Source: Chlamydiia bacterium (GTDB taxonomy: Bacteria > Chlamydiota > Chlamydiia > Chlamydiales > Rhabdochlamydiaceae). From it: a stretch of 64,000 nucleotides of DNA. The notes under the pieces were generated by a model, which did no database searches, was not told the origin of the DNA, and saw only the letters and a program-made list of their open reading frames with translations. Where the stretch lies: the NCBI GenBank assembly GCA_963804085.1, contig CAWDOQ010000010.1, positions 160,001 through 224,000 of the forward strand, written 5' to 3'. A program made the position numbers and the translations under genes. Shown here piece by piece: positions 4,775-8,833 of the stretch (positions are counted from its first letter, which is position 1; every line of letters starts with the position of its first letter).

Positions 4775-7702
4775 ATGTTCGACGTATTAAAGAAAATTTT
4801 TGGCACAGCCCAAAGCCGCATTCTAAAAAAGTATAGTAAGATTGTGGGCCAAGTGAATGCTTTTGAAGCGCGTTTGCAGCCTCTTTCCGATGAGGAAGTG
4901 CGTCAGAAAACTGAAGAATTTCGCACTAGGCTTGCACAAGGCGAGCCCATAGACAAGCTCCTCCCCGAGGCTTACGCGGTAGTCAAAAACGTCTGCAGAA
5001 GACTCTGCGGTCAGGAGATGCACGTCTCTGGTTATCAGCAAAAATGGGACATGGTCCCCTACGATGTCCAAATTCTCGGCGCTATCTGCATGCACTATGG
5101 CGCAATCGCGGAGATGCAGACTGGAGAGGGCAAGACTCTTACGGCTTCGATGCCGCTCTACTTAAATGCTCTTACGCAAAAGCCGGTCCATCTTGTCACC
5201 GTAAACGACTACTTGGCGCAGAGGGACTGCGAATGGATTGGCGCCATTTTTAGATGGCTCGGCATCACAGTAGAAGCACTTCTCAGCACAACACCCCACC
5301 ATCTACGCAAGCACACCTATGCAGCGGATATCGTCTATGGAACCGCATCGGAATTTGGATTTGACTATTTGCGCGACAACTCAATGGCCCAGAGCGCGGA
5401 CGAGCAGTGCCAGCGCGGCCATTATTTTGCCATTATCGACGAGGTCGACTCGATTTTGATCGATGAGGCAAGAACCCCGCTCATCATCTCCGGTCCCTCA
5501 CCTTCCTCTCGTCAAATGTATGACGAATTAAAAGAGGGGGTCTCTCACCTGGTGCGCTTGCAACGTGATCTCTGCAGCCGTTTGGCCACAGAAGCGCGCA
5601 AAGTTTTAGATAATCTTGGGCAGGTCGTAGAAGGCGAGAAGCGCAAATTATCAGGAAAAGAAGAAGAGGAAGAAGCAAAAGAGGCCTTCCGTAAACTCTG
5701 GCTGGTCAGCAAGGGCACACCTCAGAACAAGATTCTGAAGCGTATGCGCGAAGATCCCGACATGCGCGCAAGCATCGAAAAGTGGGATACCTACTACTAC
5801 TCTGAGCCCAATAAGCAAGAGCGTTCTAATGCTCTTTCCGAGCTCAATATCGTAGTCGATGAAAAAGCTAACGAGTATGAACTTACCGACAAGGGGATCC
5901 ACGCCTGGGCAGAGATAGCATTCTCTCAAGCGCGAGAAGAGGACTTTGTCATGCTCGACCTCGGCCATGAGTATGCGCTAATCGATGGGGACGCCAAGTT
6001 AGACGAGCAGGAGAAGATCCAGAAAAAAGTTCAATTAAGAGAGGAAGATTCTAAGAGAAAAGAGCGCGCTCATAACTTGCGTCAGCTCTTCCGCGCCCAC
6101 CTTTTGATGGAAAAAGATGTCGACTACATCATTGCAGAAGAAAAAGTCGTCATCATCGATGAGAACACGGGCCGCCCGCAGCCGGGTCGCAGATTCTCCG
6201 ACGGCCTCCACCAAGCGATAGAAGCAAAAGAGGGGGTCTCGATCCAGCAAGAGACGCAGACCTACGCGACAATCACGCTTCAAAATTACTTCCGCCTCTA
6301 CGGCAAGCTGTCAGGAATGACGGGCACTGCCATGACGGAAGCGAACGAGTTCAAAGAGATCTATAAGCTCGAAGTGCTCGCCATCCCCACTCACCGCGGC
6401 TGTCATAGAAAAGATGCCGACGATGAGATCTACATGACGGAGCGCGAAAAGTACAATGCGATCTTAAAAGACATTCAAGCGATTCATGCACAAGGCCGGC
6501 CGATCCTCATCGGTACCGAGTCGGTAGAGGTCTCAGAAAAGCTGTCTCGCATCCTGAAACAAAATAAGCTAGAGCACACTGTCTTAAACGCAAAAAACCA
6601 TGCGCGCGAAGCCGAGATCATCGCAGATGCGGGCAAGATGGCAGCGATCACTGTCGCCACGAATATGGCGGGACGCGGTACAGATATTAAATTAAAAGCC
6701 GGCGTTGCCGAAGTAGGCGGTCTGCATGTCATCGGAACCACACGCCACCAGTCGCGCCGTATCGACAGACAGCTGCGCGGCAGAAGTGCGCGTCTTGGCG
6801 ATCCCGGTTCTTCGAAATTCTACGTCTCGTTTGAAGACTCTCTCATGCGCCTCTTCACCTCTCCGCGCATCACTTCGTTTCTGCAGCGTTTTCGCCCTCC
6901 CGAAGGTGAGCCGATCTCTGCCAAGGTACTGAACAAATCGATCGAGACAGCACAAAAACGAGTCGAGCAGCGCAACTACACGATGCGCAAACACACTTTA
7001 GAGTATGACGATGTGATGAACAAACAGCGCACAGAGATCTACTCCTTCCGCAATGAAGTTTTACACACACCGAATACGCTTGCTATCGCCGAAGAGATCT
7101 TAGAAGTGATCTGCAAAGAGATGTGCAATAGCTTTTTTGCAAACCGTTCCGTAGAAGGCGGCTGGAATCCTGAAGGCTACCAAAAGTGGCTGATTACCCA
7201 TTTTCCCGTAACATTCGAAGCTGGCGAGTTTGATAATGACTACCTACAAGTTGCAGATATCGAACAGAAGGCGACAGGCAAAGTAATAAGTGGCTTTAAG
7301 ACAAAGCTCGAACATGACCTGCAGATGATCGAAAAAGCACAAGCGATCCTGCCACCTTCGAGAACGCCGATGACGCCTGAGCAAGTGCTCTCTGAAGTGG
7401 TGCGCAACCTCCTCATCCGCAATATCGACAGACTCTGGCAAGACCATCTCTTGCAGATCGACCATCTGCGTGCAGAGATCCACCTGCGCTCCATCGGTCA
7501 GAAAGATCCCCTGCTCGAATTTAAGCACGAGGCATTCTCAATGTTTGAAAGCCTCAGCCTGAAGATCAAGCTGGAGATCGCCCACGCACTCTTCAAGTTC
7601 GCCATGGTCCTCCCCGACCAAGAAGAGCCCCCACCCCCACCATCCATCCGCCCCACCCCCATGCACCGCACCAGCCTCTCCCTCATGGAAGGCGAATTTT
7701 AA
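4775..7702 (+). CDS. secA: Preprotein translocase subunit SecA
   Basis: EMQTGEGKTL, DEVDSILIDEARTPLIISG, ATNMAGRGTDIKL, RIDRQLRGR motifs. Confidence 0.98.
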   Translation: MFDVLKKIFGTAQSRILKKYSKIVGQVNAFEARLQPLSDEEVRQKTEEFRTRLAQGEPIDKLLPEAYAVVKNVCRRLCGQEMHVSGYQQKWDMVPYDVQILGAICMHYGAIAEMQTGEGKTLTASMPLYLNALTQKPVHLVTVNDYLAQRDCEWIGAIFRWLGITVEALLSTTPHHLRKHTYAADIVYGTASEFGFDYLRDNSMAQSADEQCQRGHYFAIIDEVDSILIDEARTPLIISGPSPSSRQMYDELKEGVSHLVRLQRDLCSRLATEARKVLDNLGQVVEGEKRKLSGKEEEEEAKEAFRKLWLVSKGTPQNKILKRMREDPDMRASIEKWDTYYYSEPNKQERSNALSELNIVVDEKANEYELTDKGIHAWAEIAFSQAREEDFVMLDLGHEYALIDGDAKLDEQEKIQKKVQLREEDSKRKERAHNLRQLFRAHLLMEKDVDYIIAEEKVVIIDENTGRPQPGRRFSDGLHQAIEAKEGVSIQQETQTYATITLQNYFRLYGKLSGMTGTAMTEANEFKEIYKLEVLAIPTHRGCHRKDADDEIYMTEREKYNAILKDIQAIHAQGRPILIGTESVEVSEKLSRILKQNKLEHTVLNAKNHAREAEIIADAGKMAAITVATNMAGRGTDIKLKAGVAEVGGLHVIGTTRHQSRRIDRQLRGRSARLGDPGSSKFYVSFEDSLMRLFTSPRITSFLQRFRPPEGEPISAKVLNKSIETAQKRVEQRNYTMRKHTLEYDDVMNKQRTEIYSFRNEVLHTPNTLAIAEEILEVICKEMCNSFFANRSVEGGWNPEGYQKWLITHFPVTFEAGEFDNDYLQVADIEQKATGKVISGFKTKLEHDLQMIEKAQAILPPSRTPMTPEQVLSEVVRNLLIRNIDRLWQDHLLQIDHLRAEIHLRSIGQKDPLLEFKHEAFSMFESLSLKIKLEIAHALFKFAMVLPDQEEPPPPPSIRPTPMHRTSLSLMEGEF

Positions 7703-7731
7703 AAATAAGGTTCGTTAGTTATTGTTTGCAG

Positions 7732-8255
7732 GGGCTACCATACACATGTCGGGGGACACGCCATTCGTCGTGCGCGTCCCCCGCTACCCCCTTGAGCCCA
7801 ATGCGCTTTGACAAATCGTGTCCTCGGAGTCGGGGCGTGTATAACACGACCCCGAACGTCCTCGGGCTCTCCTGCGGAGCGATTTCTCTGTGCGATTTGA
7901 GCCATTGGCTGCCGTGCGCTCACTTCCCGCCGGACTTACGTCTCGGGCGGGCCCCTTCTCGTGTCATGTCGCAGAGCCTATCAATGTTGGATACACTCTT
8001 GAAGGATGGCTCTGCGAGCCGAGATGGAAGGGGCCCCCGCGACGAAGGAGTGGGGAGGGAGTGCGCCTCGCAGCCCTTCGACTCAGATCGCACAGCAAAA
8101 TCGCTGCCGCAGGAGAGCGCGAAGCGCGTGGGGGGCCGTGTTATACACGCCCCTCCGACGAGGACACGATTTGGCAAAGCGAGGTGAGGCGCAAGGGGGC
8201 TAGCGGGGGGTAAGCGCACGCAGTGGCTTACCCCCGACATATGTATGGGTAGCCT
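7732..8255. repeat. ~520-bp imperfect palindromic element, copy A
   Basis: Left arm (ggctaccatacacatgtcggggg...) is the reverse complement of the right arm (...cccccgacatatgtatgggtagcc); homologous to 12898-13538. Confidence 0.9.
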
Positions 8256-8290
8256 CTAACTAAGATTTTATTAAATCTTCCAAAGCTTTT

Positions 8291-8833
8291 CTAAAGCTTT
8301 GTGGCTTTTTTGTAGCCGAAGTAGAAGAGGGGGAGGGAGAGTAGGGTGTAGATGAACCAATAGCTGGCGTTCCACTCTAGGCGCAGGAAACCGCCGTCAG
8401 AGAAGAGAAGTTGGAGAAGTCCTAGCGTTAGCAAGTTCGCACCTACGGAGAGAGCGAGAATAGGCATGAGCGGACTCTTGCCCGTCTCCTCCTCTTCTTC
8501 CATTGTGTTCATCGGTATCGATGTGCCGCCAAATGAGGCGGGCTGCGTGTAGCTCTTCTTCTCTTGAGAGACCTCTTTGAAGGCCTCCTTCTTTTTCTTA
8601 GGAGCAGGTTTCTCTTCAGCTTCGGGAGCCGCCGGGCCTCTACCTCCATAGGGAGGCGTGTAGAGTGATGCTAAGCTCTCTTGCAGAGTCTGATTTTTAA
8701 AAAGAGGCGCTTGAAAGGAGTTGGACTCTTCCACATCCGCTTGCTCTGCGGCGCAATAGGGACAAGTCTGTGCATCGTAAGGAATTCTGCCATCGCAGTT
8801 AGAACACATTTTTTGCTTATCGGCTGGTTTCAT
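8291..8833 (-). CDS. Conserved chlamydial membrane protein with N-terminal zinc ribbon (CT556-like)
   Basis: CSNC...CPYC motif, two C-terminal hydrophobic helices, divergent from lpdA. Confidence 0.7.
   Translation of the reverse strand: MKPADKQKMCSNCDGRIPYDAQTCPYCAAEQADVEESNSFQAPLFKNQTLQESLASLYTPPYGGRGPAAPEAEEKPAPKKKKEAFKEVSQEKKSYTQPASFGGTSIPMNTMEEEEETGKSPLMPILALSVGANLLTLGLLQLLFSDGGFLRLEWNASYWFIYTLLSLPLFYFGYKKATKL

Follow-up and report, generated by a model that had tools for sequence, protein, structure and literature searches.

The window considered here is the whole 64,000-nt stretch of DNA at positions 160,001 to 224,000 of contig CAWDOQ010000010.1 (assembly GCA_963804085.1), from a Chlamydiia bacterium of the Rhabdochlamydiaceae; all coordinates are those of the window, and its host genome, labelled G000 below, comprises 2.13 Mb in 24 contigs with a G+C content of 47-49%. 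Repeats and palindromes occupy the spaces behind secA, trkH, eno and several other genes of the window, and an initial annotation had listed 14 tracts in which the + strand is C-rich to the left of such inserts or G-rich to their right. Pfam bears out the gene names given there (SecA, GlgC, histidine kinase, BAAT-type thioesterase, enolase, TrkH, UvrD, and sigma-54). The subject of this text is the C-rich 3′ tails of genes to which most of the tracts belong, and their possible role as loading sites for the transcription termination factor Rho.

The composition of the tracts is as had been described. The GC skew of the + strand, (G-C)/(G+C), is negative in all eight left-hand tracts (-0.28 to -0.50) and positive in all six right-hand tracts (+0.24 to +0.58). 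Compared with all windows of the same size in the genome, 9 of the 14 lie in the extreme 1% and 13 in the extreme 5%, percentiles that are too generous since the tract boundaries were picked by eye; the exception is the trkH tract at 44430-44500, the weakest of those listed, which stands at 7% of the genome distribution.

Ten of the 14 tracts are 3′ gene ends, seven of them belonging to + strand genes left of junctions and three to - strand genes right of junctions. In nine of these ten tails the excess of C over G lies almost wholly at third codon positions, while positions 1 and 2 are normal. On the + strand, the glgC tail (12652-12831; NTP_transferase and LbH_GLGC domains) has 6 G and 40 C at third positions, a skew of -0.74 against -0.30 in the gene body, with a first-position skew of +0.27. 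The same holds for the tails of the BAAT/acyl-CoA thioesterase gene (25562-25741; G6/C33 at third positions, body -0.16), enolase (32001-32180; G6/C36, body -0.34), uvrD, where third-position C use is extreme (53635-53814; G5/C42, body -0.32), and the C-terminal fragment of the sigma-54 gene, rpoN (56853-57032; G9/C37, body -0.30), and in milder form for trkH (44375-44554; G15/C29, body -0.18). On the - strand, the tail of an open reading frame (ORF) at 8291-8833 (8294-8473) has G10/C30 at third positions against G24/C17 in its body, which is why the + strand is G-rich at 8300-8460 (skew +0.34). Likewise, the + strand is G-rich at 19560-19700 because the tail of an M24 peptidase gene (Peptidase_M24; 19565-19744, - strand) is C-rich at third positions (G8/C36, body -0.19). 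The one exception among the ten is the tail of secA (last 60 codons, 7520-7699, + strand), which is C-rich at all three codon positions (G/C counts of 14/21, 6/17, and 13/33) because of a proline-rich C-terminus, a protein-level cause that sets it apart from the other tails. This proline-rich C-terminal extension of SecA is encoded at 7620-7699.

The remaining four tracts are found at or close to the 5′ ends of genes, which on their coding strand have more G than C at third positions. The tract at 13620-13700 falls in the head of a metallophosphoesterase gene (Metallophos; 13567-13746, + strand; G25/C9 at third positions, body -0.07). The head of the histidine kinase gene (HisKA and HATPase_c; 17267-17446) is also G-rich at third positions (G28/C13, body -0.06), and since it is encoded on the - strand, the + strand is C-rich at 17310-17420. 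The head of the N-terminal sigma-54 fragment (Sigma54_AID; 55579-55758, + strand; G21/C6) overlaps the start of the tract at 55740-55920. The sigma-54 gene is present as two ORFs in different frames within 55579-57035, of which 55579-56052 encodes the activator-interacting domain and 56061-57035 the core-binding and DNA-binding domains; the split reflects either a frameshift or an error in the metagenome assembly.

Several families of repeated palindromes make up the inserts of the window. A nested palindromic element of about 515 bp (family F2, 27 loci genome-wide) lies at 7726-8240, between the convergent secA and ORF 8291-8833; its arms are at 7804-7858 and 8127-8181, it matches itself in inverted orientation over 546 nt, and it has 44 matches elsewhere. 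Another, of about 650 bp (F5, 43 loci), lies at 12891-13540, has modules in common with F2 and F3, and carries terminator-like hairpins on both strands (13174-13191 and 13255-13272). The 146-bp palindromic element at 17548-17689 (F3, 27 loci) carries such hairpins at 17567-17584 on the + strand and at 17670-17653 on the - strand. These three elements are related, with modules in common and loci that are almost all intergenic, and each strand has short GC-rich hairpins with T runs behind them, so that the elements amount to bidirectional terminator-like modules. A further family of GC-rich palindromes (F1; 69 loci, typically about 13 nt past a stop codon) is represented by a copy of about 80 bp at 19473-19551, separated by 10 nt from the M24 peptidase stop codon, and by an 80-bp copy at 44578-44656, between the convergent trkH and cpn60. 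Lastly, a repeat-bearing insert at 32184-32787 includes a perfect 40-nt inverted repeat (32410-32514), and repeats cover 433 nt of it.

The initial annotation had placed the C-rich tracts immediately before inserts, and this is so for five of the eight on the left (secA, glgC, the kinase, eno, and trkH). It is not so for the other three: no repeat or palindrome was found in the 117-bp gap downstream of the BAAT gene, the uvrD tail is overlapped by a convergent - strand ORF (53809-54612) with no insert, and a repeat screen of the region downstream of rpoN found none. Moreover, three flanks that had not been listed run the opposite way, namely the right flanks of the junctions at 17446-17689 (+ strand skew -0.29) and 44557-44669 (the cpn60 tail, -0.30) and the left flank of the junction at 19404-19561 (+0.11). 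On its own coding strand the cpn60 tail (44670-44850), which adjoins the 80-bp palindrome, has a third-position skew of +0.11 against -0.22 in the body and is thus a counter-example among tails also. The tracts belong to coding-strand gene ends, not to inserts.

For the genome as a whole, genes were called with our own crude hexamer-scored ORF picker (1910 genes, 84% coding). Stop codons are exact and start codons are those of the longest ORF, so that results for 5′ ends are less reliable than those for 3′ ends. An intergenic region was counted as holding an insert if a repeat or palindrome was present in it. The tails of genes of at least 900 nt were sorted into four classes by what follows the stop codon: a co-directional gene within 40 nt (operon-internal), a convergent gene within 40 nt, a gap of at least 40 nt with no repeat, and a gap with a repeat or palindrome, the last three being taken as ends of transcription units. 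The measure was the GC skew of the coding strand at third codon positions (GC3 skew) in the last 60-75 codons minus that in the gene body. Gene bodies have a GC3 skew of about -0.12 genome-wide, C is the commonest third base (0.29-0.30), and over all genes there is a mild gradient from -0.06 at the start through -0.12 in mid-gene to -0.18 at the end.

Tails differed sharply by class. Operon-internal tails (n = 298) are flat, with a GC3 skew of about -0.10 and a tail-minus-body difference of +0.006. Tails facing a convergent gene within 40 nt (n = 113) and those before a repeat-free gap (n = 250) both reach about -0.20, with differences of -0.070 and -0.060, respectively, and those before a gap with a repeat or palindrome (n = 178) reach -0.26 to -0.32, with a difference of -0.133 (p = 2e-7 against operon-internal tails). 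Extreme tails, with a GC3 skew of -0.6 or below, show the same distribution. Such values occur in 1.7% of 3713 interior windows and in 3 of 298 operon-internal tails, compared with 19 of the 250 unit ends that lack an insert and 21 of the 178 tails flanking one, a 7- to 12-fold excess at unit ends over operon-internal positions. A downstream Shine-Dalgarno sequence was considered as the cause of the flat operon-internal tails and rejected: leaving out the last 10 codons preserves the direction of the difference (-0.05 to -0.065 vs. -0.018) with a weaker test (p = 0.066), and the operon-internal profile is flat over all 12 bins. Gap length was likewise rejected as a driver, as gaps of at least 200 bp do not differ from those of 30-200 bp (p = 0.90 and 0.71).

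The shift is a gain of C at synonymous positions. Beside inserts, the frequency of C at third positions climbs from 0.302 to 0.373 while those of A, G, and T all drop. The fraction of C in codons ending in a pyrimidine (NNY) is 0.543 in tails against 0.445 in bodies beside inserts, 0.487 against 0.424 at other unit ends, and 0.431 against 0.427 at operon-internal ends, and at unit ends each class of codon families has an odds ratio for third-position C of 1.2-1.7, compared with about 1.0 operon-internally. Over all codon positions, the stretch with C above G at unit ends begins some 200 nt before the stop codon and extends to about +25 (C 0.27-0.30, G 0.22-0.23), and the spacer more than 25 nt past the stop has a skew of about 0 to +0.05. 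As a description, we hold with high confidence that in this chlamydial lineage the last 60-75 codons (~200 nt) of genes ending a transcription unit favour C-ending synonymous codons.

This habit of gene ends, combined with where inserts are found, accounts for most of what had been noted in the window. Sequence repeated at two or more other loci is present in 317 of 1026 intergenic regions of at least 40 bp, and a palindrome of at least 25 nt in 145. Inserts sit preferentially behind 3′ gene ends, above all at convergent junctions, where 93 of 176 (53%) have one, compared with 81/287, 65/246, and 95/317 (26-30%) for the other orientations; the nested-palindrome families occur at 16 of 176 convergent and 2 of 246 divergent junctions. 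Because the elements favour convergent 3′ ends and tails are C-rich, the + strand is C-rich on the left of such junctions, while the complement of the other tail makes it G-rich on the right. The share of convergent junctions with C on the left and G on the right is 51% with an insert (n = 55) and 29% without (n = 38), and that of divergent junctions is 22% with (n = 36) and 25% without (n = 87). Since the share rises with an insert at convergent but not at divergent junctions, the pattern depends on orientation. The statement that it is independent of gene orientation thus fails as a general rule, given also that in 10 of the 14 tracts it is the coding strand of a 3′ gene end that is C-rich. 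The codon habit of gene ends, and not the inserts, explains most of the "C-rich left, G-rich right" arrangement, and the orientation-independent hotspot signal is mostly a by-product of insert placement, with an increment at 3′ ends remaining.

That increment is real, but limited to 3′ ends. In a test set beforehand, tails flanking inserts do differ from insert-free ones (the last two classes above; p = 0.0086), and in a regression that took account of gap, the strand of the neighbour, the skew of the body, and gene score, the insert coefficient was -0.093 ± 0.026 (t = -3.5). Repeats running into the gene tails themselves were rejected as the source, as dropping tails with extra BLAST matches strengthens the contrast (p = 0.0015). 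The effect varies with the kind of element. For the nested-palindrome families, 20 of 23 adjoining tails are negative, with a mean of -0.275 and the last 30 codons at -0.51; the 21 such tails outside the window have a mean of -0.264 (p = 1.3e-4). Tails beside the 80-bp GC-rich palindromes are like ordinary unit ends (-0.093, n = 38). In a test for dependence of the effect on palindrome length, pooled tails with a palindrome of at least 100 nt stood at -0.127 vs. -0.068 for those with none (p = 0.07), and heads at +0.087 vs. +0.037 (p = 0.32). The idea of a signal specific to hotspots therefore holds insofar as tails beside inserts are stronger, and does not hold insofar as insert-free unit ends carry the same signal in weaker form.

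Related genomes repeat much of this. In G013, a 1.54-Mb chlamydial genome of another genus (345 reciprocal-best orthologs with G000, median identity 66.6%), the four classes gave +0.003, -0.063, -0.073, and -0.118 (n = 195, 101, 161, and 103; operon-internal vs. the rest, p = 6e-5), and the insert increment was repeated in the last 30 codons (p = 0.011). In a third chlamydial genome, G034, sampled over 400 kb, the unit-end effect was again found (p = 0.013). The tail-minus-body skew correlates across the 345 ortholog pairs (Spearman 0.31, p = 6e-9) despite saturated synonymous sites. Among 102 pairs discordant for unit-end status the tail difference was -0.05 (p = 0.043), and among 74 pairs in which both copies are unit-terminal and only one has an insert, the tail of the insert-bearing copy was shifted further toward C (difference -0.086, Wilcoxon p = 0.008), a result that held in both directions of comparison and came with a body difference of -0.004. 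Of 27 chlamydial relatives, 18 have an enolase tail with a stronger C skew than the body, though as kin they do not give independent counts; the nearest public relatives of this enolase, at 64-72% identity, are from metagenome-assembled genomes (MAGs) labelled Chlamydiae, Parachlamydiales, and in some cases Verrucomicrobiae. Outside the chlamydiae, no tail effect was found in 400 kb of Edaphobacter, an acidobacterium with rho (+0.007, n = 40, vs. +0.021, n = 88), and in 400 kb of a Lewinellaceae MAG (Bacteroidota) the pattern was reversed, the last 15 codons of unit-terminal genes having a GC3 skew of +0.24 against -0.15 in the body and the tail-minus-body difference being +0.12 to +0.15, the mirror image of the chlamydial pattern. 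The effect is lineage-specific, which suggests that different phyla have different ways of marking the ends of transcription units. As to the repeats themselves, G000 has a high load for a 2.1-Mb genome, with families of 12-69 loci that are mostly intergenic, and the relatives are repeat-rich too (intergenic regions with repeats: 192 of 630 in G013 and 61 of 160 in G034).

What might such tails do? There is in our judgment about an even chance that the C-rich, G-poor end of the mRNA serves as a loading site of the Rho utilization (rut) type. C-rich, G-poor RNA is a known preference of Rho, and Rho is encoded in G000, in a 453-amino-acid frame without internal stops on contig C17 (TIGR00767 match of 704 bits, curated cut-off 509). 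Once the last ribosome has left at the stop codon, Rho would be free to bind the C-rich tail, and a hairpin or palindrome just downstream would provide a pause or a protected 3′ end, so that a rut in the gene tail and a downstream hairpin or element could together form a composite terminator suited to short intergenic spaces. The tails resemble Rho-dependent terminators, whose rut sites have been modelled in E. coli as "bubbles" of C over G (Nadiras et al., 2018; PMC6144790, available in part), in that C-rich, G-poor RNA on the order of 100-200 nt lies just upstream of the expected unit end. The use of intragenic rut sites that are unmasked when ribosomes leave is an established idea, as far as the accessible part of the source shows (PMC12360218). 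The earlier proposal of selected rut-like tracts around inserts is consistent with the data at 3′ ends, where there is a synonymous excess of C over G that is confined to unit ends, is stronger by repeats, and occurs in a genome with rho; it is not supported as a general rule for 5′ ends or for both directions.

Several observations weigh against the Rho interpretation. Classical rut sites lie in untranslated RNA, whereas here the tract occupies synonymous positions of a translated tail and is lost within some 25 nt beyond the stop. Rho's primary site binds pyrimidine-cytosine (YC) dinucleotides, whereas third-position C is enriched to the same degree whether position 2 is a pyrimidine or a purine, and YC rises only as a by-product. 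No inverse relation was seen between tail skew and predicted intrinsic terminators (p = 0.39, in a crude scan for hairpins plus T runs that found them at 22-37% of unit ends), and the elements most strongly associated with C-rich tails carry terminator-like hairpins of their own. Convergent insert-free gaps of at least 40 nt show no tail effect (+0.019, n = 73), while other convergent tails do shift (-0.070 at gaps below 40 nt, -0.129 with inserts). In G034, the insert increment was not repeated in what is a smaller sample (-0.035, n = 33, vs. -0.103, n = 37). The absence of the effect in Edaphobacter and its reversal in the Lewinellaceae MAG, outgroups that are Rho-bearing or partly so, mean that Rho alone does not produce the pattern. 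The gene calls, moreover, are crude, and in E. coli the signal of C over G was reported downstream of the stem-loop (PMC6061677, as far as available). The C-rich tails resemble a Rho-dependent terminator and are not classed as one, given that the rut feature of untranslated RNA was not found; two outgroups are without the pattern, and for the tails described here the likeness is one of sequence.

Other explanations deserve consideration. The initial annotation had suggested two-sided insulation, in which rut-like C-rich RNA would be selected on the strand read toward an insert, at 5′ and 3′ ends alike, so as to shield the palindromic elements from all transcription. Tails beside inserts are indeed more C-rich than other unit ends, and heads beside nested palindromes shift in the same sense (head minus body +0.18 ± 0.09, n = 15), with values of +0.3 or more in 6 of the 15, compared with 40 of 350 heads that have no insert (Fisher p = 0.006). 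That cut-off was set post hoc, however, and a rank test of the heads beside this family gave no significant difference (p = 0.20, and p = 0.34 for heads outside the window). A mild shift toward G is common to the heads of every class, including the operon-internal (+0.03 to +0.06), and in the test set beforehand for 5′ ends there was no difference between those with and without inserts in G000 (p = 0.99). In G013 heads beside inserts stood at +0.086 vs. +0.022, in the direction of insulation, with no insert effect in the test (p = 0.09), and 54 ortholog pairs discordant for an upstream insert showed no head effect (mean -0.012, p = 0.94). Divergent junctions, as noted, gain nothing from an insert, heads may include untranslated leader given that starts are those of the longest ORF, and insert-free unit ends have the tail signal too. 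Two-sided insulation is for these reasons unlikely. A narrower version, in which the nested palindromes (150-650 bp, with internal hairpins on both strands) have selected tracts to either side, so that any RNA running toward them is C-rich, as sense tails at 3′ ends and as G-rich heads facing them in antisense at 5′ ends, either because these elements are actively insulated by Rho or because they home to Rho-type terminators, is doubtful; if true, a mobile-element family and the termination code of its host would be co-evolving at synonymous sites.

Conversely, the elements might insert or be retained where a tail was C-rich beforehand, for example at strong terminators, with no functional link to the tract. 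Tail-minus-body skew does behave as a conserved property of genes across the ortholog pairs, G013 orthologs of G000 insert-flanking genes are C-rich even when insert-free (-0.10; n = 24 and n = 17), and the elements strongly favour convergent junctions. In the 74 discordant pairs, however, the tract co-varies with the insert, a result that would still fit a bias toward the strongest tails, and we regard an insertion or retention bias of this kind as improbable. A mutational footprint, in which exposure of single-stranded DNA, recombination, or outward DNA synthesis at inserts skews the flanks, had also been proposed. Replication and transcription produce strand asymmetry, with GC and AT skew arising from cytosine deamination, and the switch from C over G on the left to G over C on the right of a point resembles the skew switch at a replication origin; GC3 skew also steepens toward the nested palindromes (15-codon bins of -0.51, -0.52, -0.35, -0.32, and -0.19). 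Yet deamination predicts loss of C on the exposed strand, or change of G to A on the other with C unchanged, and G over C coupled to T over A on the exposed strand at all weakly constrained sites, whatever the gene orientation, whereas here C is gained at the expense of the three other bases. The scale is that of some 200 nt, dependent on coding strand and unit context; the signal does not extend more than about 25 nt into the spacer, which is under less constraint and is itself unskewed; and it is seen at insert-free unit ends while being absent operon-internally, at 5′ ends, and at divergent junctions. The gain of C, the confinement to coding sequence, and the dependence on unit context argue against a deamination footprint, and such an origin is highly improbable. 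Translational selection for late C-ending codons, whether for speed, for accuracy, given the cost of late errors, or for efficient termination and ribosome recycling, would agree with C being the commonest third base, with the strongly negative body GC3 skew of the highly used eno and glgC, and with the mild gradient along all genes. It fails because operon-internal genes, which are translated also, keep flat tails in G000, G013, and G034, and ortholog tails change with transcription-unit context, so that it is very unlikely to be the cause. Some other selected property of the 3′ RNA segment, such as nuclease resistance or the avoidance of pairing with a downstream hairpin, would share the transcription-unit specificity of the Rho interpretation, would suit a tract directly upstream of hairpins and palindromes, and would agree with the lack of a YC signature. 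Against this, the G runs of the elements offer a C-rich tail something to pair with rather than to avoid, and no mechanism that would require C in particular is known to us; we consider a property of this sort quite unlikely.

The elements also invite comparison with the repetitive extragenic palindromic (REP) sequences and bacterial interspersed mosaic elements (BIME) of E. coli, with which work by Espeli and colleagues in 2001 is said to have dealt. REP and BIME palindromes have been tied to Rho-dependent termination and protection of mRNA 3′ ends, and, in the part of the report available, Rho-terminated transcripts end at stable stem-loops, REP sequences lie near Rho termination regions, and C is enriched over G (Dar and Sorek, 2018; PMC6061677). 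The chlamydial inserts are likewise multi-copy extragenic palindromes behind 3′ gene ends with an enrichment of C over G, and their stem-loops could pause RNA polymerase or protect a trimmed 3′ end. Unlike in E. coli, where the accessible text puts the C-rich segment downstream of REP, it lies here upstream, inside the coding sequence, and the nested palindromes, of 150-650 bp, have internal terminator-like hairpins. In those parts of the literature that were accessible to us, no description was found of synonymous C enrichment in the coding tails of unit-terminal genes, which is not proof that it is unpublished.

Elsewhere in the window, ARAGORN predicts two overlapping tRNA-Arg genes on opposite strands at 41448-41542, of which Rfam backs only the one on the - strand at 41469-41542.

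As a caution, short-range skew switches beside mobile elements can be a by-product of gene orientation. If the Rho interpretation is right, the codons used over the final 200 nt of these genes would carry a second message, the end of the transcript, and would clearly exemplify synonymous sites under selection for a non-translational reason. It would also explain why palindromic repeats gather at convergent gene ends. Furthermore, the tail signal, which can be read from sequence, would separate unit-terminal from operon-internal genes, and would thereby offer a sequence-only marker of operon ends for uncultured chlamydiae, which have no transcript maps.

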